From NCBI RefSeq assembly GCF_024223415.1, contig NZ_CP100502.1: a stretch of 64,000 nucleotides of DNA, one strand, 5' to 3'. This document shows positions 37,831-60,063 of the stretch, piece by piece. This stretch comes from Escherichia coli. GTDB lineage: Bacteria; Pseudomonadota; Gammaproteobacteria; Enterobacterales; Enterobacteriaceae. The translations under genes and the position numbers were made by a program. Under the pieces are notes generated by a model. It saw nothing but the letters and a program-made list of their open reading frames with translations, ran no database searches and was not told the origin of the DNA. The stretch's first letter is position 1; every line of letters begins with the position of its first letter.

Positions 37831-38184
37831 TATTCTAATAACTGAATCCGCACACAGTCAAATGTCATTGTTGTGACTAAAAAACGCTCAATTCTCTGAG
37901 TGTGTGGCTGTATGCCTGCTGTGGGCTGCTGTGTCCAGCTTATCCACAGCATTTTGTGCACGGTTCTGTGGACAAAATACCTGGTTACCCAGGCCGTGCC
38001 GGCACGTTAACCGGGCTGCATCCGATGCAAGTGTGTCGCTGTCGCCGGCCTCCTCACCCGGTCACGTTTCGTCGTTCCTCCTCCACGCGCTGCGGCTTCG
38101 GGGCCGCACCTGCATTCGTATGCGGTCGCCCGGTAACAGGTGCGGCACGGCCTGATGGAGGCCGCATGTGAGAGGAGAATTCCC

Positions 38185-39111
38185 ATGCCAAACTGGTGCT
38201 CGAATCGTATGTATTTTTCTGGTGAACCGGCACAGATCGCTGAGATTAAACGACTGGCCAGCGGTGCAGTTACACCGCTTTATCGCCGCGCCACAAATGA
38301 AGGTATTCAGCTGTTTCTGGCCGGAAGTGCCGGACTTCTGCAGATCACTGAAAATATCCGCTCTGAACAGTGCCCCGGAGTGACGGCTGCCGGACGTGGT
38401 GCTGTATCGACGGAAAATATCGCGTTCACCCGCTGGCTGACACACCTGCAGAACGGTGTACTGCTGGATGAGCAAAACTGCCTGATGCTGCATGAACTCT
38501 GGCTGCAGAGCGGTACTGGACAGCGTCGCTGGGAAGGATTACCGGATGATGTCAGGGAAACCATCACTGTGCATTTCACCGCAAAAAGAGGTGACTGGTG
38601 TGACATCTGGGGTAGCGAGGATGTATCGGTGTGGTGGAACCGTCTGTGTGACAACGTAGTGCCGGAAAAAACCATGCCGTTTGACCTGCTGACGGTTCTG
38701 CCGACCCGCCTGGATGTTGAAGTGAATGGCTTTAATGGTGGTGTTCTGAACGGTGTTCCTTCTGCATATCACTGGTATACAGAACGGTATGGCGTGAAGT
38801 GGCCTTGTGGGTATGACCTGAATATCAGTAGTCAGGGAGACAACTGCATTCAGGTGGATTTCGACACGCCGTGGTGTCAGCCGGAAAGCGACGTTGTTGC
38901 AGCATTAAGCCGCCGTTTCGGCTGCACGCTGGAGCACTGGTACGCCGAACAGGGCTGCAATTTCTGTGGCTGGCAGTTGTATGAGCGCGGAGAGCTCGTT
39001 GATGTGCTCTGGGGGGAACTGGAATGGTCTTCCCCGACAGATGACGATGAGCTGCCGGAAGTCACCGGACCTGCGTGGATAGTCGACAAGGTGGCGCATT
39101 ACGGGGGATGA
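38185..39111 (+). CDS. Hypothetical leading-region protein
   Basis: 308 aa from MPNWCSNRMYF with SD GAGGAG. Confidence 0.55.
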   Translation: MPNWCSNRMYFSGEPAQIAEIKRLASGAVTPLYRRATNEGIQLFLAGSAGLLQITENIRSEQCPGVTAAGRGAVSTENIAFTRWLTHLQNGVLLDEQNCLMLHELWLQSGTGQRRWEGLPDDVRETITVHFTAKRGDWCDIWGSEDVSVWWNRLCDNVVPEKTMPFDLLTVLPTRLDVEVNGFNGGVLNGVPSAYHWYTERYGVKWPCGYDLNISSQGDNCIQVDFDTPWCQPESDVVAALSRRFGCTLEHWYAEQGCNFCGWQLYERGELVDVLWGELEWSSPTDDDELPEVTGPAWIVDKVAHYGG

Positions 39112-39495
39112 AGTATGACGGAGACGGGCGGGCAACCGCCCGTTTCTTTTCCGACAAAGGATGTCGCCGTGCTCCTCTGTTTACTGCGCCGGCTGATGCG
39201 GCGCGGCATAAACGCTGCCTGTGGTCAGTGTCCCGCGTCCGGCGGGCACGGGACGGGCGCTTTTACCGCTCCCGGCTGGCGTCGGTGACAGTGTACGCCA
39301 GCCTGTCGCCCTTTTCTGATGAACGCCCTTCAAGCCGCTTTCGCGGCATATTCTCGCCGTCAAAAAGACGACGGCTGCGATATTCCACGGTCGGCCTGAC
39401 CCGTTACCGGACGCGGTGAACAGCCCACAGGCAGCGGGGAACGGGCACCACAGGGGTGCCCTCCCGGTGCCCTCTGAGAAAGAAGGAGTGTTGTT

Positions 39496-40179
39496 ATGTC
39501 CCGTTTTGTCCTCGGTAACTGCATTGATGTTATGGCGCGTATTCCTGATAACGGCATTGATTTCATACTGACTGACCCGCCATACCTCGTCGGTTTTCGT
39601 GACCGACAGGGGCGTACCATCGCCGGCGATAAAACCGATGAATGGCTGCAACCAGCCTGTAATGAAATGTATCGCGTACTCAAAAAAGATGCGCTGATGG
39701 TCAGCTTCTACGGCTGGAACCGCGTCGATCGCTTTATGGCCGCCTGGAAAAATGCGGGATTCAGTGTGGTTGGGCACCTGGTCTTCACCAAAAACTACAC
39801 ATCGAAGGCCGCATATGTGGGTTATCGCCACGAATGCGCCTACGTTCTGGCAAAAGGCCGTCCGGCGCTGCCTCAGAAGCCATTACCCGACGTGCTGGGC
39901 TGGAAATATTCAGGCAATCGTCATCACCCGACGGAAAAGCCTGTTACCAGCCTGCAACCACTGATTGAGAGCTTCACACATCCGAACGCGATTGTGCTGG
40001 ACCCGTTTGCAGGCAGCGGCTCAACCTGCGTGGCTGCCCTTCAGTCCGGACGCCGGTATATCGGTATCGAGCTGCTTGAGCAGTATCACCGTGCCGGACA
40101 GCAACGTCTGGCTGCCGTACAGCGGGCCATGCAGCAGGGGGCCGCAAATGATGACTGGTTTATGCCGGAGGCTGCGTAA
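39496..40179 (+). CDS. Orphan DNA methyltransferase (N6-adenine/N4-cytosine type, DPPY motif)
   Basis: 227-aa ORF; DPPY motif and FAGSGST AdoMet-binding motif. Confidence 0.85.
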   Translation: MSRFVLGNCIDVMARIPDNGIDFILTDPPYLVGFRDRQGRTIAGDKTDEWLQPACNEMYRVLKKDALMVSFYGWNRVDRFMAAWKNAGFSVVGHLVFTKNYTSKAAYVGYRHECAYVLAKGRPALPQKPLPDVLGWKYSGNRHHPTEKPVTSLQPLIESFTHPNAIVLDPFAGSGSTCVAALQSGRRYIGIELLEQYHRAGQQRLAAVQRAMQQGAANDDWFMPEAA

Positions 40180-40401
40180 ATGAACTATGCCGGACATGAA
40201 AAACTTCGCGCCGAAGTGGCGGAGGTGGCCAATGCCATGTGCGACCTGCGTACAACCATGAATGAGATGGAGCGGCGGTACAGCTTTAATGCTGACACCC
40301 TGCCGGAACGTCTGGTGCGTCAGACGTTGTTTCGCGCAAACCGCCTCCTGATGGAGGCATATACCGAAATTCTGGAACTGGATTCCTGCTTCAAAGATTG
40401 A
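40180..40401 (+). CDS. Hypothetical small protein
   Basis: 73-aa ORF starting at the methylase stop. Confidence 0.45.
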   Translation: MNYAGHEKLRAEVAEVANAMCDLRTTMNEMERRYSFNADTLPERLVRQTLFRANRLLMEAYTEILELDSCFKD

Positions 40402-40412
40402 GGGGAGAGAGT

Positions 40413-40847
40413 ATGTACGGAACATGCGAAATACTCTGCCGGGAGCTGGCAGCAAAGTATCCGGCAGACACGCCACTGATGCTGGTTGTCTGGTCCCCTG
40501 AAGAGATTCAGGCCCTCGCTGACGGAATGGATATTTCCCTGTCCGATCATGAAATCAGGACCGTCCTGGCGCGCCTGGAGGACATCCCGGAAGACCAGCG
40601 GATTGAGTCCGGTATTTCTTCCGGCGTGGCGATGGAGATTATCAGCAACGTGAGAGAAAACCGCCAGGTGACCGTCCCTGCTGAACTGCTGGCGTCCCTG
40701 ATTCAGACCGCTGAACAGGCACTGTGGAAACGTGAATGGGCCGCCCGTGATAACGGCCTTGCCGTCCCGGAATGTGTTACCCGCCGTCAGGCAGTGATTA
40801 ATCAGGCCCGCACCCTGCTGAAAAACAACACACACGAAAACAACTGA
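40413..40847 (+). CDS. Hypothetical leading-region protein
   Basis: 144 aa from MYGTCEIL with SD. Confidence 0.5.
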
Positions 40848-40897
40848 TGTTATCGCCGCCTGCCCTGCGGGCGGCGATACAGGGAGAACGCTTAATC

Positions 40898-41668
40898 ATG
40901 AACAAAACGCTGAATGCACTGGTTTGTCGTCACGCCCGTAACCTGCTGCTGGCGCAGGGCTGGCCGGAAGAGACGGATGTTGACCAGCGAAATCCGAACT
41001 ATCCGGGCTGGATCAGCATTTACGTGCGGCTGGATGCGCCCCGGCTGGCGACGTTACTTATCAACCGTCACGGCGGCGTACTGCCGCCGCTCCTGGCCTC
41101 CGCCATTCAGAGACTGACCGGAACCGGGGCGGAACTGGTACTGTCCGGCAGTCAGTGGCAGTCGCTGCCGGTACTTCCGGCAGACGGAACGCAGGTGTCT
41201 TTCCCGTATGCCGGAGAATGGCTGACCGAAGACGAAATCAGGGCTGTTCTTGATGCGGTGCACGATGCGGTACGAAGCATCTGTTACCAGGTGGCAGAAG
41301 ATGCGCGGCGTATCCGTGCGGCGCTGACCACCACCGGTCAGACGTTGCTGACCCGCCAGACGCGCCGCTTTCGCCTGGTCGTGAAGGAAAGCGATCACCC
41401 CTGCTGGCTCGATGAAGATGACGAAAACCTGCCCGTGGTGCTCGATGCCATCGTGAACCGGGGAGCACGTTTTTCGTCGGTGGAAATGTACCTGGTCAGC
41501 GATTGTATTGAGCATATCCTGTCCTGTGGGCTGGCCTGCGATGTGCTGCGTATACCCGATGAACCGCCCCGCCGCTGGTTTGACCGTGGTGTTCTGCGGG
41601 AGGTGGTCCGGGAAGCCCGGACCGAAATCCGCAGCATGGCGGATGCCCTGGCAAAAATCCGGAAATGA
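40898..41668 (+). CDS. Hypothetical leading-region protein
   Basis: 256 aa from [10 protein letters not shown] with SD AGGGAGAA. Confidence 0.5.
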
Positions 41669-41726
41669 TGACACTGGCGGGGTAAATCCCCGCCTTTTTC
41701 CTGCCGGTCCCCGGACAGAGCACAAA

Positions 41727-42058
41727 GGAAGTCGCCGCCGGCTCCGCTTTACCCGGCCATGCGGGGCATGGCCTTGTGGGTTTTCAGTTATGTGGCCACC
41801 GTGTCGTGTGCGGGCTGTGCCGTGCCTCCATCTTAGCCGGGCTGGCAGGGATGCAAGGGTACGCTTCGCCGCTGCGGTCACCCGGTCCCTCCTTCCCGTC
41901 TGCCGTGATTTTCCGGTCGTTCACCCGCTCAGATTTCGCGGTCTCACCCTCCAACTCCCGCCAGCCGTGTGCGTCAGGCTGCGGCTTCCCTTGCGCCCTG
42001 TGCATCCCCGCCTTATCGCCCGGCTTTTATGGAGGCACGGCACCGCCCGGTGTCGCGG
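41727..42058. repeat. Leading-region GC-rich repeat, family B copy 1 (Frpo/ssi-like single-strand promoter candidate)
   Basis: About 330 bp nearly identical to 48711-49040; directly upstream of klcA/ardB-like gene. Confidence 0.7.
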
Positions 42059-42085
42059 AATATGTGAACAACGGAGGAATACATC

Positions 42086-42511
42086 ATGCAATATGCGAAA
42101 CCTGTCACTCTGAATGTTGAAGAGTGCGACCGTCTGTTTTTTCTGCCTTACCTGTTTGGCCAGGATTTTCTGTATGTCGAAGCGTCTGTGTACGCGCTGG
42201 CGAAAAAAATGATGCCGGAATATGAAGGCGGATTCTGGCACTTCATCCGCCTGCCGGACGGTGGCGGCTACATGATGCCGGATGGCGACCGTTTCCACAT
42301 AGTGAACGGTGCAAACTGGTTTGACCGTACCGTGAGTGCTGATGCCTGCGGCATCATTCTGACTTCCCTTGTGATTAACCGCCAGTTGTGGCTGTACCAC
42401 GACAGCGGTGATGCAGGACTGACCCAGCTTTACCGGATGCGCGATGCGCAGTTGTGGCGTCACATCGAATTTCACCCTGAATGCAACGCGATTTACGCGG
42501 CTCTGGACTGA
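42086..42511 (+). CDS. klcA: Antirestriction protein, KlcA/ArdB family
   Basis: 141 aa; [17 protein letters not shown] and C-terminal NAIYAALD motifs recalled from KlcA. Confidence 0.75.
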
Positions 42512-42557
42512 TTAACGGACGGGGCGGCAATGCCGCCCCTGTAAAGGAGACGAGAAA

Positions 42558-42980
42558 ATGTACTGTACTGTTAAAGAAATTATCCGCGAAGTGCTGGATA
42601 CAGACGTGCCGGACAGTGAATGCGTTTTTGCCGTGGTGCTGACCCGTGGGGATGTGCGTCACATAGCCCAGGACTGGAACCTGTCAGACGATGAGCTGGA
42701 AACCGTCATGCAGCGGCTGGACGATGCCTTTGAGCATGGTGCGGATGTCAGCGTTGTTCACGACGTTGTTCGTGAACTGATGGAAGAAAAGCGCGCCAGC
42801 CGTCATGTGACAGTCCCGGCGATGATGCTGGAAAAAGTGATGGCGCTGGCAGGCAGTGAAATGAAGCGCCTGTATGCCGTCGGAAGTGAGAACGGGGGCG
42901 ACGGTGACGCATTCGTCAGGGAGGAACGCGAAGCAATGGACGTTGTGTTACAGGCGCTGGACGGGGAGACGATGTCATGA
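42558..42980 (+). CDS. Hypothetical acidic leading-region protein
   Basis: 140-aa ORF with SD AAGGAGA. Confidence 0.5.
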   Translation: MYCTVKEIIREVLDTDVPDSECVFAVVLTRGDVRHIAQDWNLSDDELETVMQRLDDAFEHGADVSVVHDVVRELMEEKRASRHVTVPAMMLEKVMALAGSEMKRLYAVGSENGGDGDAFVREEREAMDVVLQALDGETMS

Positions 42981-43168
42981 ATATCAGCACAGAAACCCGC
43001 GAAATTCTGCGTAATTACAGGGCCGTGATTAATGCGCGGCGTCGTGAAATGGGGCAGAAACCGCTCACCACCGCGCAGATTGTTGATGAAATCTGCGATT
43101 TTGTGGCGAATCAGCAGGCGGTTTTCCTGGGCGGTCACTACATCTTACAGGGCAGCAGAAACAGGTGA
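42977..43168 (+). CDS. Hypothetical small protein
   Basis: 63-aa ORF overlapping upstream stop. Confidence 0.4.
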   Translation: MNISTETREILRNYRAVINARRREMGQKPLTTAQIVDEICDFVANQQAVFLGGHYILQGSRNR

Positions 43169-43404
43169 TACAGGGGCAGGCGGTGGAGGCCGCCTGTCAG
43201 CCCGCGCGAAAACCCCTGGCAGGCTGACGCCTGCCGGAAGGGAAGCGGGCCACGCTGGCGCGTCGCCCGTTACCCTTCCCGTCTGTGATGTGTCTGACTC
43301 AGGAGTGTTTCTTTCTTATGTTATGGAACTGTTCCTGATGTTGTTGTTCCTTTATCTGCTGCTCTGATTCTGACTACTGCAGTGTTGTTCTGTCTGCCGG
43401 GCGC

Positions 43405-43920
43405 ACCTTCGGCTCCCGGCTGCCTGGCGGCATCCGGTCGTCAGGCCCGACTCCGACAGGCAGCTGCTGGCGCACCCGCCAGTCTCCGCCGAACCCGCTG
43501 GCGCGGTTTCGGGCTGTCGCTACGGTCCGATGCGTGAAAACCCGGGCTTGCAGCGACCGTTCCGGTCGCGCCGCCTCTGTCGCGCCGTGACCTGCGCTCC
43601 CTGCACACCTGACGGTGTGTGAGGAAACTGCGCCTGATGGCGCAGCAGTCCTCCCTCCTGCCGCCACCTCTGCGGCCTGTTTCCCGCTGTGGACTTTCCG
43701 GGGGGCAGACGTAACCCCCTCCCGTTCCATCTGTCCAGGGTGAGATGCACCGGCCACAAAATTTTTAGCCATGAACCCGGCAAAAAATTTTGCGTCCGCC
43801 CCCGGACAGCTGTCCCGTGAGGCGGTAAACGGGCCCCCATCGGAAAGGTCCACTGCGGGGAGAAACCCCTGTGAAGTGGACGGCAGGAGGAGCTTTCGCT
43901 CCTCTGAAGGGGCACATGAA
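43405..43920. repeat. Leading-region GC-rich repeat, family A copy 1 (Frpo/ssi-like)
   Basis: About 515 bp highly similar to 49739-50255 and, in part, 52815-53150; directly upstream of ssb. Confidence 0.7.
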
Positions 43921-43973
43921 CGTCCCGTCTCCGGTATCCGGTTTATCTCACATCTTTCAGTCAGGAGGTTCTT

Positions 43974-44501
43974 ATGAGTGCACGTGGTATCAACAAGGTC
44001 ATCCTCGTCGGGCGTCTGGGCAATGATCCGGAGGTCCGTTACATCCCCAACGGTGGCGCAGTGGCAAACCTGCAGGTGGCCACGTCAGAAAGCTGGCGCG
44101 ACAAACAGACGGGGGAGATGCGGGAGCAGACGGAATGGCACCGTGTTGTGCTGTTCGGCAAGCTCGCGGAAGTGGCAGGTGAATATCTGCGCAAGGGCGC
44201 GCAGGTCTACATCGAGGGGCAACTCCGTACCCGTAGCTGGGACGACAACGGCATCACCCGCTACATCACTGAAATTCTTGTTAAGACCACGGGCACCATG
44301 CAGATGCTGGGGAGTGCACCACAGCAGAACGCTCAGGCGCAACCGAAGCCTCAGCAGAATGGGCAGCCACAGAGTGCTGACGCGACGAAAAAAGGTGGCG
44401 CGAAAACGAAAGGCCGTGGACGTAAGGCCGCGCAGCCCGAGCCTCAGCCGCAAACGCCGGAGGGGGAGGATTACGGGTTTTCAGACGACATCCCGTTCTG
44501 A
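43974..44501 (+). CDS. ssb: Plasmid single-stranded DNA-binding protein
   Basis: 175 aa; OB-fold N-terminus, Gln/Pro-rich linker, acidic tail DDIPF. Confidence 0.95.
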
Positions 44502-44516
44502 TCGGGCTGACTGTGA

Positions 44517-44792
<276 letters not shown>

Positions 44793-44850
44793 GAGAGGTG
44801 CCGGACGCGCGAACGTCCGGCAGGACATAAGCAATTATAAGGGGATGATT

Positions 44851-46809
44851 ATGCCTGTAACGAAGTGTGAACCAGAAACCACCCGCAAAGCAAGCCGTAA
44901 ATCTGCAAAAACGCAGGAAACTGCCCTGTCTGCCCTGCTGGCGCAGACGGAGGAAGTGAGCGTGCCGCTGGCCTCACTGATTAAATCACCGCTGAATGTG
45001 CGCACGGTGCCGTATTCTGTGGAGTCCGTCAGCGAACTGGCTGGGTCCATTAAGGGCGTTGGCCTGTTGCAGAATCTGGTCGTGCATACCCTGCCTGGTG
45101 ACCGTTACGGTGTCGCCGCAGGTGGTCGCCGACTGGCTGCACTCAACATGCTGGCAGAGCGCAACATCCTTCCGGCTGACTGGCCTGTCCGTGTGAAGGT
45201 CATCCCGCAGGAACTGGCGACTGCCGCATCGATGACCGAGAACGGTCATCGTCGGGATATGCACCCTGCCGAACAGATTGCCGGATTCCGCGCATTGGCG
45301 CAGGAAGGCAAAACACCTGCACAGACTGGCGACCTGCTGGGCTATTCACCCCGCCACGTTCAGCGAATGCTGAAACTGGCAGACCTTGCGCCTGTCATCC
45401 TCGATGCGCTGGCAGAGGACCGCATCACCACCGAGCACTGTCAGGCGCTGGCGCTGGAGAGCGACACCGCGCGTCAGGTGCAGGTGTTTGAAGCGGCCTG
45501 CCAGTCAGGATGGGGCGGTAAACCGGATGTGCGGGTTATCCGCAACCTGATTACGGAAAGTGAAGTGGCAGTGAAGGACAACACTAAATTCCGCTTTGTG
45601 GGGGCTGATGCCTTCTCGCCAGACGAATTGCGCACCGATTTGTTCAGCGATGACGGGGACGGTTATGTCGACCGCGTGGCGCTCGATGCCGCCCTGCTGG
45701 AAAAACTCCAGGCTGTTGCAGAGTTCCTTCGGGAAGCCGAAGGCTGGGAATGGTGCGCCGGGCGCATGGAGCCTGTCGGTGAGTGCCGTGAGGATGCCGG
45801 AACATACCGCTGTCTGCCGGAGCCGGAAGCGGTGCTGACGGAGGCGGAAGACGAACGCCTGAACGAACTGATGACGCGTTACGACGCGCTGGAAAACCAG
45901 TGTGAGGAATCCGACCTGCTGGAAGCAGAAATGAAGCTGATGCGCTGCATGGCGAAGGTCAGAGCGTGGACGCCGGAGATACGTGCCGGAAGCGGTGTGG
46001 TGGTGTCCTGGCGTTATGGCAACGTATGTGTCCAGCGTGGTGTGCAGTTGCGCAGTGAAGATGACGCGACTGACGACGCTGACCGCACGGAACAGGTGCA
46101 GGAGAAAGCGTCAGTGGAGGAAATCAGCCTGCCGTTGCTGACGAAAATGTCCTCAGAGCGCACGCTGGCAGTCCAGGCGGCACTCATGCAGCAGCCGGAC
46201 AAATCTCTGGCACTGCTGGCATGGACGCTCTGCCTGAATGTGTTTGGCAGCGGGGCGTACAGTAAACCAGCACAAATCAGCCTGGAATGTGAACATTATT
46301 CGCTGACCAGCGATGCGCCATCGGGGAAGGAAGGTGCCGCATTCATGGCGCTGATGGCAGAAAAATCCCGTCTTGCAGCCCTGCTGCCGGAGGGATGGTC
46401 ACGGGACATGACGACATTCCTGTCCCTCAGTCAGGAGGTGCTGTTATCCCTGCTCAGTTTCTGCACCGCATGCAGCCTTAACGGTGTCCAGACCCGTGAG
46501 TGTGGTCACACGTCACGCAGTCCGCTTGACTCGCTGGAAAGCGCTATCGGATTCCACATGCGCGACTGGTGGCAGCCGACAAAAGCAAACTTCTTCGGAC
46601 ACCTGAAAAAGCCGCAGATTATCGCAGCCCTGAATGAGGCCGGACTGTCCGGTGCCGCACGGGACGCGGAGAAGATGAAGAAAGGTGATGCGGCTGAACA
46701 TGCAGAGCACCATATGAAAGACAACCGCTGGGTTCCAGGCTGGATGTGTGCACCACATCCACAGACAGATGCCACTGAACGCACCGATAACCTGGCTGAT
46801 GCCGCCTGA
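44851..46809 (+). CDS. ParB-like nuclease-domain protein of the leading region
   Basis: 652 aa from MPVTKCEP; N-terminal ParB/Srx-like region. Confidence 0.75.
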   Translation: MPVTKCEPETTRKASRKSAKTQETALSALLAQTEEVSVPLASLIKSPLNVRTVPYSVESVSELAGSIKGVGLLQNLVVHTLPGDRYGVAAGGRRLAALNMLAERNILPADWPVRVKVIPQELATAASMTENGHRRDMHPAEQIAGFRALAQEGKTPAQTGDLLGYSPRHVQRMLKLADLAPVILDALAEDRITTEHCQALALESDTARQVQVFEAACQSGWGGKPDVRVIRNLITESEVAVKDNTKFRFVGADAFSPDELRTDLFSDDGDGYVDRVALDAALLEKLQAVAEFLREAEGWEWCAGRMEPVGECREDAGTYRCLPEPEAVLTEAEDERLNELMTRYDALENQCEESDLLEAEMKLMRCMAKVRAWTPEIRAGSGVVVSWRYGNVCVQRGVQLRSEDDATDDADRTEQVQEKASVEEISLPLLTKMSSERTLAVQAALMQQPDKSLALLAWTLCLNVFGSGAYSKPAQISLECEHYSLTSDAPSGKEGAAFMALMAEKSRLAALLPEGWSRDMTTFLSLSQEVLLSLLSFCTACSLNGVQTRECGHTSRSPLDSLESAIGFHMRDWWQPTKANFFGHLKKPQIIAALNEAGLSGAARDAEKMKKGDAAEHAEHHMKDNRWVPGWMCAPHPQTDATERTDNLADAA

Positions 46810-48607: not shown

Positions 48608-48710
48608 ACCAGACATGTATATTTTACGCAGGGACACGCCGATCATGATCGTTTCATATCAGGGGTGGTCTGGAGGTCATGCGGCGTGTCCTCTGCACTC
48701 GCCGGAATAA

Positions 48711-49040
48711 GGAAGTCGCCGGCGGCTCCGCTTTTACCCGGCCATGCGGGGCATGGCCTTGTGGGTTTTCAGCTCTGTGGCCTCAGCGTCGTGTGCGGGC
48801 TGTGCCGTGCCTCCATCTTAGCCGGGCTGGCAGGGATGCAAGGGTACGCTTCGCCGCTGCGGTCACCCGGTCCCTCCTTCCCGTCTGCCGTGATTTTCCG
48901 GTCGTTCACCCGCTCAGATTTCGCGGTCTCACCCTCCAACTCCCGCCAGCCGTGTGCGTCAGGCTGCGGCTTCCCTTGCGCCCTGTGCATCCCCGCCTTA
49001 TCGCCCGGCTTTTATGGAGGCACGGCACCGCCCGGTGTCG
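48711..49040. repeat. Leading-region repeat, family B copy 2 (Frpo/ssi-like)
   Basis: Nearly identical to 41727-42058; directly upstream of ardA. Confidence 0.7.
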
Positions 49041-49069
49041 CAGAACATGTGACTATGGAGGATTCGGGA

Positions 49070-49570: not shown

Positions 49571-49738
49571 TTTACTCCCCCGCTCCGGCGGGGGTATGGC
49601 CTGCCAGGCCGCCGGAAAACCCTGGCAGGCTTACGCCTGCCTGAAATGCAGGAGGGCCGCGCCTGCGGCGCTGCCCTTCCTGCCCGTCATGGTGTGAGGC
49701 ATTTTTCTGTTATGTCGTTTCTGTTGTTCTGATTTCCG

Positions 49739-50255
49739 GAGGCGGGGACACCTTCGGCTCCCGGCTGCCTGGCGGCATCCGGTCGTCAGGCCCGACTCCG
49801 ACAGGCAGCTGCTGGCGCACCCGCCAGTCTCCGCCGAACCCGCTGGCGCGGTTTCGGGCTGCCGCTACGGTCCGATGTCTGAAAAACCAGGCTTGCAGCG
49901 ACCGTTCCGGTCGCGCCGCCCCTGTCGCGCCGGAAACGGCGCTCCCTGCACACCTTACGGTGTGTAAGGCAACTGCGCCTGATGGCGCAGTCAACCCTTC
50001 CGCCGCCACCCCTGCGGCCTGTTTCCCGCTGTGGACTTTCCGGGGGCTGGAGTAACCACATCCCGTTTCAGCAGTCCAGGGGAAGATATACCGTCCACAA
50101 AATTTTTAGCCATAAACCCGGCAAAAAATTTTGCGTCCGCCCCCGGACAGCTGCCCCGTGACGTGGTGACGGACGCCCCATCGGAAAGGTCCACTGCGGG
50201 GAGAAACCCCGAAGAAGTGGACGGCAGAAGGGGCTTTCGCCCCTCCGGGGAGCAA
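49739..50255. repeat. Leading-region repeat, family A copy 2 (Frpo/ssi-like)
   Basis: Highly similar to 43405-43920. Confidence 0.7.
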
Positions 50256-52611: not shown

Positions 52612-52814
52612 AAAACACCTTTGAAAAAGTGAAAAAACTTCACTTTATTTTATCACCATAACCACCAAATCAGCGCGAAAAATAAGTGTGAAAAAGTGAA
52701 GGAATTTCACTTTTTTTGATTGTAGGTGTCGTGCTGTTTTCTCTGTTTTCACCTGTGCGGGAGTGGTGTGCCAGTGACCACCACATGCCATTGTTGCGCC
52801 GTCGTTTTTCTTCA

Positions 52815-53150
52815 GTCGCGCCGGATGCGGCGCTCCCTGCACACCTTACGGTGTGTAAGGCCACTGCGCCTGATGGCGCAGCTGTCTCTGCCTGTCTGCC
52901 GCCGCACTGCGGCCTGTTCTCCGCAGATGGACTTTCCGGGGGTACATACACGACCACATCCCGTTTCAGTCGTCCAGGGGAGAGATGTACCAGCCACAAA
53001 ACTTTTTGCCGCAGGCGTCAAAAACTTTTGCGTCTGCCCCCGGACAACTGCCCCGTGACGTGGTGAGCGTCCCCCGTCGGAAAGGTCCACTGCGGGGAAA
53101 TCCCCGAAGACCCGGACGGCAGAAGGAGCTTCGCTCCTCCGGGAAATGAC
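52815..53150. repeat. Leading-region repeat, family A copy 3 (partial)
   Basis: Aligns with the distal two-thirds of the family A repeats. Confidence 0.65.
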
Positions 53151-54123: not shown

Positions 54124-54465
54124 TCAATTGTTGTTCATATCGATGCCATCTTTCCTGGCTGAATCTGTCTTTTTAGATGCTGTTTTAGAGGAAGAACGGC
54201 GGGATGGCTTTTTCGATTCTGCTTCCCGAATAATGTCACGAAGTGCCTTCTCTCCTACTTCATACCCTGCATTTTTGAGCGTATCACGAACATCTGCCAG
54301 TGTATAACCCTTTGTCCTTACCAGAACAATAATGTCATCACGAATGGCATCAAGAAAATCACGCAATGTTTTCCGTTGAGCGGTGAGATCTGGCAATTCC
54401 GATAAAGCAGCTTTTGCCAGCTGGATGTCATCATCTGAGTAAAATTTTTTAGAAGCCATTGGCAC
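54124..54465 (-). CDS. Hypothetical protein transcribed divergently from nikA next to oriT
   Basis: 113-aa ORF with Lys/Ser-rich C-terminal tail. Confidence 0.45.
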   Translation of the reverse strand: MPMASKKFYSDDDIQLAKAALSELPDLTAQRKTLRDFLDAIRDDIIVLVRTKGYTLADVRDTLKNAGYEVGEKALRDIIREAESKKPSRRSSSKTASKKTDSARKDGIDMNNN

Positions 54466-54559
54466 TTTCTCTCCGTTTCATGTTGAAGTCTGATTTTATC
54501 ATCAAAAACTGACTCCTGGCAGGGCTGCGCCCTGCCTCTGCCGTCTGCATAAGACTATG

Positions 54560-54692
54560 ATGCACAAAAATAACAGGCTATAATGGCCTGAAAAACGGGA
54601 CAGGATGTGCAATTGTAATACCGTCACACGCGACGCTATTACAATTGCCATCTGGTCAGGGCTTCGCCCCGACACCCCGTAAGGAGCCTGAA
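54560..54692. other. Putative origin of transfer (oriT)
   Basis: Immediately upstream of nikA; inverted repeat GCAATTGTAATAC ... TATTACAATTGC around 54609-54658. Confidence 0.5.
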
Positions 54693-55025
54693 GTGAGTGA
54701 TAGTGCGGTAAGAAAGAAAAGTGAGGTACGGCAAAAGACAGTTGTCAGGACACTCAGATTCTCTCCTGTTGAGGATGAAACCATCAGGAAAAAAGCTGAA
54801 GATTCCGGACTTACTGTATCTGCTTACATCCGAAATGCAGCACTGAATAAGCGAATTAACTCCCGTACAGATGATGCTTTTCTGAAGGAGTTAATGAGAC
54901 TGGGAAGGATGCAGAAGCATCTGTTTGTTCAGGGAAAAAGAACCGGTGACAAGGAATACGCAGAAGTGCTTGTTGCCATAACCGAACTTACAAATACATT
55001 GCGTAAACAGTTAATGGAAGGTTGA
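54693..55025 (+). CDS. nikA: Relaxosome accessory protein NikA (ribbon-helix-helix)
   Basis: 110 aa from GTG, MSDSAVRKKSEVRQKTVVRTLRFSPVEDETIRKK. Confidence 0.85.
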   Translation: MSDSAVRKKSEVRQKTVVRTLRFSPVEDETIRKKAEDSGLTVSAYIRNAALNKRINSRTDDAFLKELMRLGRMQKHLFVQGKRTGDKEYAEVLVAITELTNTLRKQLMEG

Positions 55026-55035
55026 GGATTCTCCG

Positions 55036-57735
55036 GTGAATGCAGTCATTCCGAAAAAGAGAAGGGACGGCAAGTCTTCGTTCGAAGACCTGGTATCCTA
55101 CGTCTCTGTCCGGGATGACATGACCGATGAGGAACTGGATTTATCTTCTTCTTCGCAGGCTGAACAACCGCACCGAAGCCGTTTCAGTCGCCTTGTTGAT
55201 TATGCGACACGTCTTCGAAATGAGTCATTCGTGGCGCTGGTTGATGTCATGAAGGACGGCTGCGAATGGGTCAACTTTTATGGTGTCACCTGCTTTCATA
55301 ACTGTACTTCTCTTGAAACTGCCGCTGCAGATATGGAGTACATTGCCCGGCAGGCACACTATGCAAAAGATGACACTGATCCTGTTTTTCACTACATCCT
55401 TTCCTGGCAGTCACATGAAAGCCCGCGTCCGGAACAGATTTATGACAGTGTACGTCATACGCTGAAATCACTCGGCCTTGCCGACCATCAGTATGTCTCT
55501 GCCGTGCATACTGATACAGATAATCTGCACGTCCATGTGGCTGTTAACCGGGTACACCCTGAAACGGGTTATCTGAACCGGTTATCCTGGAGTCAGGAAA
55601 AACTCAGTCGTGCCTGCCGTGAGCTTGAACTGAAGCATGGTTTTGCTCCGGATAACGGTTGCTGGGTCCATGCACCGGGAAATCGTATCGTTCGCAAAAC
55701 CGCCGTTGAACGTGATCGCCAGAACGCGTGGACACGCGGGAAAAAACAAACTTTTCGCGAGTATGTCGCGCAGACAGCGGTCGCTGGTTTACGCAGTGAA
55801 CCTGTAAATGACTGGTTATCCCTGCATCGTCGTCTTGCGGAAGATGGTCTGTACCTGTCTCAGATGGACGGAAAATTTCTGGTGATGGATGGCTGGGATC
55901 GCAACAGGGAAGGTGTACAGCTTGACTCGTTTGGTCCCTCCTGGTGTGCAGAAAAACTCATGAAAAAAATGGGTGACTACACGCCAGTACCAAAAGACAT
56001 TTTCAGCCAGGTGGAAGCACCAGGACGCTATAATCCGGACTTCATTGCCGCTGATGTTCGCCCGGAAAAAATCGCTGAAACAGAAAGTCTGCAGCAGTAT
56101 GCCTGTCGTCATCTTGGAGAACGTCTGCCGGAAATGGCACGGGAAGGACGGCTGGAAAACTGCCAGGCTATTCACCGCACACTGGCTGAAGCGGGATTAT
56201 GGATGCGTGTTCAGCATGGTCACCTGGTTATCTGTGACGGTTATGATCATAACCAGACTCCCGTTCGTGCTGACAGCGTATGGTCGCTGCTGACGCTCGA
56301 CAATGTGAATCAACTCGATGGTGGCTGGCAGCCTGTACCAACAGATATTTTCCGCCAGGTTACGCCAACAGAACGCTTCCGTGGTCGTCGTATGGAGAGC
56401 TGTCCTGCGACCGATAAAGAATGGCACCGTATGCGTACAGGCACGGGGCCGCAGGGGGCTATCAAACGCGAACTGTTTTCTGACAAAGAAAGTCTGTGGG
56501 GATACAGCATCAGCCATTGTAGCCCTCAGATTGAAGAAATGATCACACAGGGTGAGTTTACCTGGCAGCGTTGTCATGAGCTGTTTGCACAACAGGGACT
56601 GATGCTACAGAAACAACATCACGGGCTTGTTGTCGTTGATGCCTTTAATCATGAGCAAACGCCGGTGAAGGCCAGCAGCATTCATCCTGATCTGACACTG
56701 GGGCGTGCAGAGCCACAGGCCGGACCTTTTGTGAGTGCCCCAGCAGATTTGTTTGACAGGGTGCAACCTGAAAGTCGCTATAACCCGGAGCTGGCTGTCA
56801 GTGACAGGTACGGGGTCAGCAGTAAACGTGACCCAATGCTGCGCCGGCAGCGACGTGAAGCCAGAGCTGAGGCCCGTGCTGACCTGCGTGCCCGCTATCT
56901 GGCATGGCGTGAACAATGGCGTAAACCAGATCTGCGTTATGGGGAACGTTGTCGGGAAATTCATCAGGCATGCCGTCTGCGGAAGTCACACATTCGTGCG
57001 CAGTACGATGATCCGGCATTACGTAAGCTGCATTATCACATTGCAGAAGTTCAGCGAATGCAGGCATTGATCAGGCTGAAAGAAGACATCAGGGATGAGC
57101 GACAGAAACTTATTGCTGATGGGAAATGGTATCCACCCTCTTACCGTCAGTGGGTCGAAATTCAGGCTGCTCAGGGAGACAGGGCTGCTGTATCGCAGCT
57201 GAGAGGCTGGGATTATCGCGATCGCCGTAAAGACAGGTCACGCACAACGACGACAGACCGCTGTGTCGTGCTTTGTGAACCGGGCGGAACGCCGGTATAC
57301 GGTAATACCGGTGATCTCGAGGCCCGTCTGCAGAAGAACGGGAGTGTTCGTTTCCGTGACCGTCGGACGGGAGAGTTTGTCTGTACGGATTATGGTGACA
57401 GGGTTGTTTTCCGTAATCACCATGACCGCAATGCGCTGGCAGATAAACTGGATTTGATTGCACCGGTATTATTCGGGCGTGATCCACGCATGGGTTTTGA
57501 ACCAGAAGGAAACGACAAACAATTTAACCAGGTCTTTGCTGAAATGGTTGCCTGGCATAATGTGACAGGCCGTACCGGTCACGAAGACTACAGGATTACG
57601 CGACCGGACGTGGATCATCACCGTGAAGGAAGTGAACGCTACTACCGCGATTATATCGCGGCGAACAGCAACAATGACGCATCACTGCCTCCGCCGGAGC
57701 AGGATAAACGCTGGGAACCGCCTTCTCCAGGTTAA
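55036..57735 (+). CDS. nikB: Relaxase NikB
   Basis: 899-aa ORF with relaxase histidine motif HVHVAVNRVHPETG. Confidence 0.9.
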   Translation: MNAVIPKKRRDGKSSFEDLVSYVSVRDDMTDEELDLSSSSQAEQPHRSRFSRLVDYATRLRNESFVALVDVMKDGCEWVNFYGVTCFHNCTSLETAAADMEYIARQAHYAKDDTDPVFHYILSWQSHESPRPEQIYDSVRHTLKSLGLADHQYVSAVHTDTDNLHVHVAVNRVHPETGYLNRLSWSQEKLSRACRELELKHGFAPDNGCWVHAPGNRIVRKTAVERDRQNAWTRGKKQTFREYVAQTAVAGLRSEPVNDWLSLHRRLAEDGLYLSQMDGKFLVMDGWDRNREGVQLDSFGPSWCAEKLMKKMGDYTPVPKDIFSQVEAPGRYNPDFIAADVRPEKIAETESLQQYACRHLGERLPEMAREGRLENCQAIHRTLAEAGLWMRVQHGHLVICDGYDHNQTPVRADSVWSLLTLDNVNQLDGGWQPVPTDIFRQVTPTERFRGRRMESCPATDKEWHRMRTGTGPQGAIKRELFSDKESLWGYSISHCSPQIEEMITQGEFTWQRCHELFAQQGLMLQKQHHGLVVVDAFNHEQTPVKASSIHPDLTLGRAEPQAGPFVSAPADLFDRVQPESRYNPELAVSDRYGVSSKRDPMLRRQRREARAEARADLRARYLAWREQWRKPDLRYGERCREIHQACRLRKSHIRAQYDDPALRKLHYHIAEVQRMQALIRLKEDIRDERQKLIADGKWYPPSYRQWVEIQAAQGDRAAVSQLRGWDYRDRRKDRSRTTTTDRCVVLCEPGGTPVYGNTGDLEARLQKNGSVRFRDRRTGEFVCTDYGDRVVFRNHHDRNALADKLDLIAPVLFGRDPRMGFEPEGNDKQFNQVFAEMVAWHNVTGRTGHEDYRITRPDVDHHREGSERYYRDYIAANSNNDASLPPPEQDKRWEPPSPG

Positions 57736-57771
57736 AAAAAAGGCCGCGCCAGAATCCGGCGCGGCCACTGT

Positions 57772-60063
57772 TCAGTACATTCCGTCCCAGTCCGGACGGT
57801 TGGTTTTTTTATGATGAAACCCGTTTACAGGACGCCCTGTCGGGTGGTTATTGTCCTGTGGAAGCGTTAACAGGTTTATACCTGCTCTTTCTGCTCTCAC
57901 TGATATCTGATTTTCCTCTTTTGTTTCAGGTAGTTCTGGTCTGTTCAGCGTGATATAGCGAATTCGTCGCTCTTCCCGTGTGGTCGTTTTAAGCGTATTC
58001 ACCGCTGTTTCCCACAAGGCACTTTCACGTGCGTTGATATCTGTGTCGTACTCTTCCAGCATTGCCATAGCCGCCTGACGTCCTGCAATGCGTTGCTGGA
58101 ATGTATCCACGATCGTGTGCGGCTCTGTGCGAATTTTTCGTCTTTTTCTGGAGGGTTTTGCAGTCAGGACGCCAATGATGGCACTGACATTTTCCGGTGA
58201 CGGTATTCGACGTTGAGTAGTACGGGGAACAAGACGGCGGAGACGGTCCAGGCGTGGCGCATCCACGCTGATATACCTGTTTATAACAACGGGATCGCTG
58301 CTGCAGCTTTTCTCATCGTCAGGGATGAAGAATGATGCTGATGGTACGGTTTCTCCCCGGAAAATAGAAAAGAACTCGCCAGGATGAAGTTCAATCAACT
58401 CCTGAACATTTATCTTGCTTTCCATCAGGATGCTGATTTGTGGGCTGTCAATCCATGATTCACCAAATATGCCGTCCTGACGCTGCAGGTTGTTCATTCT
58501 CGCCCTGGCTTCTTCACCGGCGGCGCTTTTCAGCGTTCTGGCCGTACTACCCTCGCTGACAATCCTGCCGGCAAATTTTGTCCCCGTGTTCTGCATCAGT
58601 GTTGCAGTATTCGTGGCTGTTGTCTGTCCTTCTATACGTTCCTGGTCCTGTGCCATCAAAATCAGAGCAAAATCCAGTGAACGCACCTGAGTGGCTTCCA
58701 CAGCAATACGGTCCGTATAGTATGCCCCCACTTCATCAAGGAAACACAGATAAGGGAAACGCCCCTTATATTTTTTGACTTCCAGTGCATCGGAATCAGT
58801 TCCTTCGAGGCGGTAGCCCAAATCACGGGCGAGAATCATACTTTTCTGGGTGATAAACATTCGTCCAAGAGCAGACGTTGTATGCGCTGATGTATCCAGA
58901 GCGGGGATCATTACCATCAGAATCCTGTCGCTGTGAATGCTGTCACGGATATCGATATCACCGGAATCTTCAGCAAAAATATCCCCGAATGCTTCCGTGA
59001 ATGTGCTGAAAGTTTCAGAAAACTGCCCGGAGAGATAAGCATGTTGTTTTCTGGGTTCTTCCGTCCAGGCTGATGGTGTCCTGACCAGCGACAGGTCGAA
59101 ACCGGGAACGTCCTGAAGGTAGTTACGTAACGGTGCGATAGCTTCTTCCGGCCACTGATCATCGAGGCCACGACAGTAAAGTTTGGCCATCCCTTCGAGA
59201 GTCATATGTTCACGGAGCATCTGCAGCGACATTGTTTTGCCTTCGCGCACACACCAGAATTTAGTACCAAATACTAGTGCCTTATTCATGGCAATGGCCC
59301 GGGACTGCCACTCGCCCCCCTGGACGTTCTGGGGCAGCATTGACTGCATTGTCTCCGCTGTGAATGCCTCAGTGCTGTAACAGAAGGGATTCCAGGTATT
59401 TGACTGAGGACGCGTTTTTTCACCACTCAGAATGATTTCACTGCGGGATTTTCCTCCGTTCATGAAGTTAATGACTTCCACATCGTCTTCACGTCCAAAG
59501 CGTCTGGCCAGATACCAGATCGTTCTTGCCGTATCATTCTGTGCCTTGCCATCGACAAGGGTGAATCCTCTTGCCCAGCAAAGTGGGTTAATCGCCCAGG
59601 CAAAGATGGTTTCCGTTTTACCGCCACCGGTGGTGGCGAAAAACATTATATGGCGGGTCAGATCGTCCATACTCAGCCATAACTCCCTGCCAATATCCCT
59701 GACGCGTTGATAACCAACATAGAATATGCCGCTGGCCGGTGATTCCAGAATGACCTCATACTGGAACAGGGTTGGCCAGAAGCTGAAAAGACTTCTTTTA
59801 ATCATTCTGTCCTGTGACGGGTCAGCACATTCCAGCGTCATGGGCATACGAAGAGGGCAGCGCCATCGCTGCAGACTAAATACCAGCATTGTTATCAGTG
59901 TGAACAACAGACATGCCGGTAATGCAAGTGGCCAGATAAAACTGGCCACAAGACTTGCCACCAGGCAAAAGCCATAGATATTGAGACTCTGGAGTGCATT
60001 CCAGACAGGATTTCCCCAGGCTGTACGGTGTAAAAGCTCGGGGTTAACGCGATGTTCACTCAT
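57772..60063 (-). CDS. trbC: Conjugation protein TrbC (Walker A ATPase)
   Basis: 763-aa ORF; N-terminal membrane helices; FATTGGGKTE. Confidence 0.8.
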   Translation of the reverse strand: MSEHRVNPELLHRTAWGNPVWNALQSLNIYGFCLVASLVASFIWPLALPACLLFTLITMLVFSLQRWRCPLRMPMTLECADPSQDRMIKRSLFSFWPTLFQYEVILESPASGIFYVGYQRVRDIGRELWLSMDDLTRHIMFFATTGGGKTETIFAWAINPLCWARGFTLVDGKAQNDTARTIWYLARRFGREDDVEVINFMNGGKSRSEIILSGEKTRPQSNTWNPFCYSTEAFTAETMQSMLPQNVQGGEWQSRAIAMNKALVFGTKFWCVREGKTMSLQMLREHMTLEGMAKLYCRGLDDQWPEEAIAPLRNYLQDVPGFDLSLVRTPSAWTEEPRKQHAYLSGQFSETFSTFTEAFGDIFAEDSGDIDIRDSIHSDRILMVMIPALDTSAHTTSALGRMFITQKSMILARDLGYRLEGTDSDALEVKKYKGRFPYLCFLDEVGAYYTDRIAVEATQVRSLDFALILMAQDQERIEGQTTATNTATLMQNTGTKFAGRIVSEGSTARTLKSAAGEEARARMNNLQRQDGIFGESWIDSPQISILMESKINVQELIELHPGEFFSIFRGETVPSASFFIPDDEKSCSSDPVVINRYISVDAPRLDRLRRLVPRTTQRRIPSPENVSAIIGVLTAKPSRKRRKIRTEPHTIVDTFQQRIAGRQAAMAMLEEYDTDINARESALWETAVNTLKTTTREERRIRYITLNRPELPETKEENQISVRAERAGINLLTLPQDNNHPTGRPVNGFHHKKTNRPDWDGMY

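Follow-up and report, generated by a model that had tools for sequence, protein, structure and literature searches.

Five small genes accompany the orphan methylase and KlcA in two operons of an IncI1 plasmid leading region

The leading region of the plasmid pESBL-EA11 (hereafter pESBL) carries six single-stranded-DNA (ssDNA) promoters: a class 3 element precedes M.EcoGIX, class 2 elements precede klcA and ardA, and the others are of class 1 (ssi1-3/Frpo). Rapid amplification of cDNA ends (5' RACE) located the transcription starts, and the operons were up to ~500-fold induced 15 min after mating (PMC12672017). RNA sequencing of the F plasmid showed that its M.EcoGIX and KlcA operons were likewise induced (PMC12672017). 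The methylase encoded there, which modifies SAY sites on single strands, shields DNA that enters the cell against Type II restriction (PMC4288162, PMC7736820). Here we describe five small open reading frames (ORFs) that accompany a methylase gene of this type and a klcA gene at positions 40180–43168 of a 64,000-nucleotide stretch of Escherichia coli DNA (contig NZ_CP100502.1, assembly GCF_024223415.1), the whole of which is referred to as the window.

All five ORFs belong to families that have already been catalogued. Among the top 100 leading-region families of Samuel et al. (2024), family 6 is YffA, family 7 DUF1380/YfcB/YubF, family 10 YchA/YfdA/YubG, family 11 YfcA and family 14 YcjA/YfeC/YubJ, each with 3145–4048 members at a median of 15–20 ORFs from the origin of transfer (oriT), oriented to the transferred strand (T strand) at a false discovery rate of 0 and labelled uncharacterised (PMC11541004). 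The genes are therefore known, both as these published 'uncharacterised' families and as pESBL and F orthologues. The present analysis adds the arrangement in two operons within the window, the recognition of yfcB and yfeC as DUF1380 paralogues, a proof of coding for all five ORFs from substitution rates, a confident structural model of YfdA without an outside fold relative and a chromosomal CRISPR (clustered regularly interspaced short palindromic repeats) spacer against yfcB.

Two operons of small coding genes

Our analysis demonstrated that each of the five ORFs encodes a protein and is under purifying selection. All five lie on the plus strand where the first-pass annotation of the window had placed them, and the ratio of non-synonymous to synonymous substitution (dN/dS) given for each was obtained by codon-level comparison of the window genes with their F plasmid orthologues.

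40180-40401, plus strand: yfcA (Hp9 of pESBL, YubE family of F, PF27407), 73 aa; ORF call, GGAGG site, dN/dS 0.16
40413-40847, plus strand: yfcB (Hp10, YubF/YcgB), DUF1380, 144 aa, net charge -8; PF07128 E 9e-54, dN/dS 0.33
40898-41668, plus strand: yfdA (Hp11, YchA/YubG/NgrC), 256-aa alpha/beta protein; ORF call, dN/dS 0.23
42558-42980, plus strand: yfeC (Hp12, YcjA/YcgC/YubJ), diverged DUF1380 paralogue, 140 aa, net charge -17, isoelectric point 4.4; dN/dS 0.20
42977-43168, plus strand: yffA (Hp13), 63 aa, basic, net charge +3; ORF call, dN/dS 0.07, 98% identity to F

The dN/dS values of 0.07–0.33 were similar to those of the known neighbours methylase (0.12), klcA (0.15) and ssb (0.24), and every ATG was preceded by a purine-rich Shine-Dalgarno site (yfcA GGAGG, yfcB GGGGAGAGAG, yfdA GGGAGAA, yfeC AAGGAGA and yffA GGGGAGA), so that both lines of evidence identify the five as real genes and the ribosome-binding sites reported for them were confirmed. 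The yfcA ATG abuts the methylase TAA, yfcB starts 11 nt past the yfcA stop and yfdA 50 nt past the yfcB stop, while yfeC starts 46 nt past the klcA stop and the yffA start overlaps the yfeC stop (ATGA). The first-pass description of one tightly packed run was thus right about the close, abutting and overlapping starts and wrong about a single run, as two clusters that belong to two operons are kept apart by klcA, by a spacer of 417 nt that forms hairpins and by the intrinsic terminator at 41676-41700. Operon A consists of a hairpin promoter, the M.EcoGIX methylase, yfcA, yfcB, yfdA and the terminator, and operon B of a hairpin promoter, klcA, yfeC and yffA.

The window represents the leading region of an IncI1 (ColIb-P9/R64/pESBL-type) plasmid. 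Bases 38000-45000 matched thousands of enterobacterial conjugative plasmids, the best being IncI1 plasmids that include ColIb-P9 (NC_002122) at 99.6%. Positions 39014-44520 were collinear with pESBL-EA11 54300-59768 at 93.5% nucleotide identity, and the module was also present in the F plasmid (NC_002483, 54850-57837) with the same order and the same spacing. The five proteins showed 92–98% amino acid identity to their pESBL orthologues and 75–98% to those of F, and all five were annotated as coding sequences in ColIb-P9, R64-type, F and pESBL records. Gene order in annotated records runs from impCAB, DUF1281 (yfaB), the methylase (yfbB), yfcA, yfcB, yfdA and yfeB (klcA/ardB antirestriction) onward to yfeC, yffA, ssb, DUF905, a ParB-like gene, psiB, psiA and ardA, which agrees with the earlier placement of the run between an orphan methylase and ssb.

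Downstream of the five ORFs lie genes for NikA/MobA (54645-55025) and a MOBP relaxase (55036-57735). Because the relaxase lies downstream and the genes are oriented to oriT, the minus strand is the T strand and serves as template of the leading-region genes. Relaxase position and gene direction bear out the leading-region context given in the first-pass annotation, and the clustering of anti-defence genes that it mentions has been reported for leading regions (PMC11541004). The ParB-like ORF at 44761-46809 is a homologue of F YfjB, although the ColIb-P9 orthologue is slightly shorter and the true start may lie downstream of 44761; F YfjB has been renamed HerB, a CTP-binding (cytidine triphosphate) reprogrammer of host transcription (PMC13370423).

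The remaining elements of both operons, and the start of the next, were as follows.

39210..39436 (approximate limits, from the dot-bracket string), minus strand: T-strand hairpin upstream of the methylase, orthologue of the 'class 3' ssDNA promoter; DNA fold
39496..40179, plus strand: yfbB, M.EcoGIX-type orphan adenine methylase that opens operon A; NCBIfam NF010253 E 7e-151, 94% identical to pESBL M.EcoGIX
40848..40881, plus strand: GC-rich intercistronic hairpin 5' of the yfdA ribosome-binding site; RNA fold -25 kcal/mol
41676..41700, plus strand: intrinsic terminator closing operon A; GGCGGGGTAAATCCCCGCC then TTTTT, same structure in F
41813..42049, minus strand: T-strand hairpin upstream of klcA, 'class 2' ssDNA promoter; DNA fold
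42086..42511, plus strand: klcA/ardB (yfeB) anti-restriction gene that opens operon B; annotation 'antirestriction protein', phrog_10132 E 1e-18
42521..42539, plus strand: GC hairpin in the klcA-yfeC spacer; GGGGCGGCAATGCCGCCCC, fold -18 kcal/mol, same sequence in F
43383..43904, minus strand: ssi/Frpo-type ('class 1') ssDNA promoter region preceding ssb, where the next operon starts; DNA fold

On the minus strand, the segment upstream of the methylase (39112-39495) folded at -109 kcal/mol with a z score of -7.0 against shuffled sequences and was 97.4% identical to its pESBL counterpart, while the segment upstream of klcA (41669-42085) gave a z score of -4.5 at 96.2% identity; no shuffled sequence folded as well as either. 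The z score of the segment upstream of ssb (43169-43973) was -13.3. Additionally, a 355-bp copy of the klcA hairpin region with 96.6% identity was found at 48709-49062, upstream of ardA, and the ssb upstream region was repeated at 49722-50245 (89%) and 52812-53139 (80%). Together, the three hairpins and these repeats make six ssDNA promoter sites, as in pESBL. Two hallmarks of Frpo/ssi elements, a leading-region position with the T strand as template and a large T-strand hairpin directly upstream, were found. No sigma-70 consensus promoter was detected on either strand of 39000-44100 (5.1 kb), against 1.7 expected, which is consistent with a lack of transcription from the duplex form of this region. 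In pESBL, the two operons are silent in established cells and undergo strong, transient transcription in the recipient from the ssDNA hairpins before the complementary strand is made; this behaviour is carried over to operons A and B of the window on the basis of the 93.5% collinear identity. The hairpin in the yfcB-yfdA spacer was kept in F and in the related loci L011 and L012 despite differing sequence, and this element and the one between klcA and yfeC, each directly 5' of the next ribosome-binding site, may serve in mRNA processing, stability or translational coupling.

The yfcA gene diverged from F to an unusual extent, with 75% amino acid identity and a synonymous rate (dS) of 0.83 in comparison to 92–98% and 0.10–0.26 for its neighbours, and plasmid matches to yfcA fell into two identity groups of ~95–100% and ~78%. 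This pattern suggests allelic replacement, in which two old alleles would have been swapped by recombination.

Several Arg/Pro-rich ORFs overlap the promoter hairpins (39108-39419 and 41508-42113 on the plus strand, 41784-42005 on the minus strand). Some records annotate such ORFs as 'hypothetical protein' or 'DUF1472 domain-containing protein': 39108-39419 is annotated as a protein in ColIb-P9 and pESBL, the 'DUF1472' label is found in pN17EC0616-2, and at least one record annotates the DUF1472 ORF and omits yfdA. For 39108-39419 and 41508-42113 the dN/dS was 0.4–0.8, on very few substitutions. These ORFs are probably translated hairpin DNA rather than genes, in which case DUF1472 would be a doubtful family.

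Families, predicted folds and distribution

The yfcB product matched Pfam DUF1380 (PF07128) along the entire model (E 9.1e-54, model positions 1-137 of 137), while yfeC matched it over residues 1-99 only (E 2e-4), and BLASTP aligned the two proteins at 29% identity over 116 aa (E 2e-10). The DUF1380 profile matched 17 of 21 aligned members at E<=1e-3; conservation was mainly hydrophobic, with E47 as the sole other invariant residue and a motif R-x-V-T-V-P-A-x-x-L. No Pfam match was obtained for yfcA in a release that lacked the PF27407 model, and the PF27407:YubE label was found on the 73-aa yfcA orthologue in L011 and on yfcA-yfcB read-through proteins. No Pfam family was matched by yfdA, whose relatives named YchA/YubG/NgrC ranged from 92% down to ~20% identity (phmmer, Foldseek) and place it along its full length within the YchA/YubG family. 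RefSeq names in a 99.5%-identical plasmid were 'YubE family protein' for yfcA and 'YubG family protein' for yfdA. For yffA there was no above-threshold family match in Pfam, NCBIfam, PHROGs or PADLOC and no helix-turn-helix (HTH) family match. The first-pass statement that the ORFs have no recognisable domain is therefore true only in part, given the full-length DUF1380 of yfcB, the weak DUF1380 of yfeC, the YubE label of yfcA and the RefSeq YubG name of yfdA.

Among NCBIfam and PADLOC models the methylase alone was matched and none of the five ORFs, which in PADLOC had no match at E<=0.1 where the methylase matched MTase_II models; Rfam returned nothing relevant. In PHROGs the only matches of the ORFs were to 'unknown function' families, and these matches do not show phage genes, as yfcB, yfdA and yffA found no tblastn match in phage genomes. 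Sequence and profile searches of the PDB gave no informative match for any of the five, the best being a de novo designed protein at E 1e-3. No catalytic family was matched in Pfam, NCBIfam, PHROGs or PADLOC, and assignment to a known non-defence family, which the first-pass annotation had named as evidence against its suggestion, was obtained neither in these databases nor in PDB sequence and fold searches.

Several candidate relationships were rejected. No alignment linked yfcA to yffA. A KlcA/ArdB identity (PF03230) for yfeC found no support, as Pfam gave DUF1380 only and BLASTP against the adjacent KlcA gave E 4.8, and the label of ArdA (PF07275) for yfdA was not supported by Pfam or fold searches. 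The name N6/N4 methyltransferase is attached to many database entries of yfcB and yfeC; neither these nor yfcA matched a methylase model, the only match being the gene at 39496-40179.

An AlphaFold2 model of YfdA from an 18-sequence alignment reached a predicted local distance difference test score (pLDDT) of 91.4 and a predicted template modelling score (pTM) of 0.84, and showed an alpha/beta protein with two long helices. A Foldseek search of AFDB50 with this model returned its own family only, for which an exhaustive search gave 180 representatives whose named source organisms were all Enterobacterales. The predicted fold of YfdA is thus confident, has no structural counterpart beyond the family and so offers no clue to function. 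Invariant residues in the alignment were limited to M1, W22, A142, R153 and E164, of which the last four do not suggest a catalytic site in this set of sequences. Homologues down to 24% identity retained length and N-terminus. A 273-aa reading of yfdA from the ATG at 40847, which overlaps the yfcB stop (TGATG) and is common in databases (P0004, 2206 members), was rejected because 18 homologues share M1 and the N-termini of the 40898 start. The structure prediction proposed in the first-pass annotation gave a confident model for YfdA, while a linked yfcA-(G4S)5-yfcB model was of low confidence (mean pLDDT 47, pTM 0.31) and too poor for a fold search; two long helices were predicted for yfcA in it.

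The module including methylase and klcA (39496-43168) was present in 3816 of 5426 complete E. coli genomes, nearly always plasmid-borne, with at least 80% of it in 3126. Its parts were separable in more distant relatives. YfdA homologues with 24–30% identity occurred in leading regions (L005, L007, L009) between umuDC/DUF1281 and KlcA or ArdA without the methylase, and the Salmonella plasmid L012 possessed methylase-DUF1380-YfdA and KlcA and lacked yfcA, yfeC and yffA. These contexts indicate that YfdA is independent of the methylase and KlcA independent of yfeC and yffA. In L011, where yfcB was 65% identical, the order YubE-DUF1380-YfdA-KlcA was kept, and some E. coli plasmids (H71, H72) carried the KlcA operon without the methylase operon.

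Directly upstream of the distant YfdA homologues, a 156-aa protein was encoded (L007:6443-6913, L005:3608-4078) whose C-terminal ~50 residues aligned to the DUF1380 N-terminal module with an hhalign probability of 42% (E 2.6e-4) and a common pattern T-x3-L-x3-L-x2-Y-P...V-x-W...L-x-D-x-E-I. A gene pair of a DUF1380-like protein and YfdA may be older than the linkage to the methylase. Furthermore, a type I-F CRISPR array (next to cas6f/csy3) on the chromosome of E. coli STEC299 (NZ_CP022279.1, L015:1501-1534) contained a spacer identical to yfcB 40566-40598, which indicates that a natural host acquired immunity targeting a leading-region gene.

Candidate functions of the five proteins

We favour a reading, to which we give about an even chance, in which the five proteins bind factors of the recipient without enzymatic activity, at targets that are unimportant in K-12. 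The incoming single strand would give rise to a single short-lived pulse of these small, mostly acidic products, along with two anti-restriction functions, the methylase and KlcA. They would then inactivate or tie up host components, with defence or DNA-surveillance proteins as the most probable ones, which laboratory K-12 does not possess or does not depend on. A non-enzymatic role is proposed from the sparse invariant residues of YfdA and DUF1380, the lack of a catalytic family match and the acidity of yfeC (-17) and yfcB (-8). Transposon sequencing (TnSeq) of pESBL scored Hp9, Hp10, Hp11/YchA, Hp12 and Hp13 as 'non-essential 1.00' for maintenance and for K-12 transfer (PMC4288162 Table 2), and targets that are absent from K-12 or unneeded there would explain this dispensability. 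A tentative proposal, which we hold to be somewhat less likely than its converse, is that one or more of the five represents a novel class of inhibitor acting on an immune or DNA-surveillance protein of the recipient; the best candidates would be YfdA/YubG, with its confident fold and no outside relative, and the acidic DUF1380 pair.

Several points weigh against the proposal that the five proteins bind recipient factors. The neutral TnSeq scores would be expected just as well of genes without an important role. It is from spacing and the terminator that we infer the five small ORFs to lie within the induced operons. An anti-defence activity of any of the five was found neither in papers nor in this analysis, with no assay or homology link to one, and a search of the literature on DUF1380 and the yfc/yfd/yfe/yub genes found no functional study. 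Anti-CRISPR or anti-restriction hits by sequence or structure are essentially absent from the five families (PMC11541004, Supplementary Table 1), apart from a few members of families 10 and 14, which we infer to be fused or mis-called ORFs. Many anti-defence families are shared between plasmids and phages, and yfcB, yfdA and yffA had no tblastn match in 50,697 phage records. Finally, judged by gene content, the absence of yfcA, yfeC and yffA from L012 marks these genes as accessory. The anti-defence suggestion of the first-pass annotation is upheld only in part, for its leading-region context with methylase and KlcA as neighbours, and the genes proved to be catalogued already.

A more specific version of recipient-factor binding concerns Mrr. 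Cloning of M.EcoGIX alone sensitised plasmids 10- to 10,000-fold to EcoKMrr, a Type IV enzyme that depends on methylation (PMC7736820), and yet natural plasmids bring the methylase into Mrr-positive E. coli, from which it could be proposed that yfcA-yfcB-yfdA form an antidote that shields promiscuously N6-methyladenine-marked incoming DNA from Type IV restriction. We consider this version improbable, as transposon insertions in Hp9-Hp11 left transfer into the K-12 recipient CAG18439 unreduced (PMC4288162). From its MG1655 background, we take CAG18439 to be Mrr-positive; the result counts against the antidote on that assumption.

The best surviving alternative, which we regard as rather unlikely though not negligible, is that the five are establishment factors unrelated to defence that act on the physiology of the recipient or on the processing of plasmid DNA, for example in synthesis of the complementary strand, in damping of SOS or stress responses or in reprogramming of metabolism, like PsiB or HerB/YfjB. 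The early burst also yields the non-defence proteins SSB, PsiB, PsiA and HerB (PMC13370423, PMC12672017), HerB itself was counted as an 'uncharacterised leading-region protein' until 2026, and no similarity to anti-defence proteins was found with PADLOC, fold search or the Samuel table. However, the direct operon partners methylase and KlcA are both anti-restriction functions, the five contain no DNA-binding or nucleotide-binding motif, and their acidity suits protein or DNA-mimic binding over DNA binding. Moreover, TnSeq showed no cost to transfer or maintenance in K-12, where a general function should become visible.

An unlikely explanation, ranked below the establishment factors, is that the five are accessory subunits or regulators with no host targets of their own, such that yfcA, yfcB and yfdA tune or target M.EcoGIX while yfeC and yffA assist KlcA. 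Starts that abut, lie near or overlap preceding stops, and an order that is fixed in IncI1, F and pESBL, are consistent with this, as is the arrangement in which one DUF1380 paralogue is co-transcribed with the methylase and the other directly follows KlcA; yfeC (net -17) and yffA (net +3), whose genes overlap, are also opposite in charge. Against such partnership, M.EcoGIX cloned without the other genes is active in trans and modifies SAY sites in vivo (PMC7736820), and methylase deletion by itself yields a restriction phenotype (PMC4288162). YfdA-like genes also reside in regions without methylase or recognisable DUF1380 (L005, L007, L009), and KlcA stands without yfeC/yffA in L012 and its operon without the methylase operon in H71 and H72.

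The notion that the five are non-functional, either chance ORFs or remnants on DNA conserved for other reasons, can draw on a GC-rich region with many overlapping chance ORFs, on hairpin ORFs annotated as proteins though their dN/dS is 0.4–0.8 and on dispensability in TnSeq, and is nevertheless so improbable as to be refuted for practical purposes by low dN/dS with many synonymous changes, and further by a ribosome-binding site on every ORF, by the confident fold and conserved length and N-terminus of YfdA homologues and by the wide occurrence of the module.

Comparison with known systems

The module is carried on plasmids in ~70% of completely sequenced E. coli genomes and is expressed within minutes of the entry of a resistance plasmid, and its neighbours methylase, KlcA, ArdA, PsiB and HerB each manipulate the recipient. 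Knowledge of what the five proteins act on would close the biggest gap left in the IncI/IncF establishment programme, and could yield new inhibitors of bacterial immunity or points at which plasmid spread may be blocked.

Families 6, 7, 10, 11 and 14 of Samuel et al. are the same families as the window ORFs, of which the window holds one IncI1 copy. The labels 'methyltransferase', 'ArdA' and 'KlcA' in their table reflect a minority of members or UniProt names and were unsupported by Pfam, BLASTP and fold searches. Hp9-Hp13 of pESBL and the YubE/F/G/J module of F are orthologues with identical order and spacing, from which only yfcA departs by its unusual divergence from F.

Anti-CRISPR operons of the acr-aca type in phages and plasmids likewise consist of small, fast-evolving, unannotated and tightly spaced ORFs, sometimes with a small basic protein as the last gene. 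Unlike in those operons, yffA had no HTH match, no similarity to Acr proteins has been reported for the five families, and shut-off here is explained by the promoter hairpin turning duplex rather than by a repressor.

Among proteins of the same plasmids, HerB/YfjB and PsiB are zygotically induced from the leading region, and each acts on a host target during the initial minutes that follow entry. The five ORFs show no homology to either and, unlike HerB with its CTP-binding and HTH domains, contain no recognisable motif. KlcA/ArdB and ArdA share with the five ORFs a common island and early expression from ssDNA promoters, and are likewise small, acidic and non-enzymatic.

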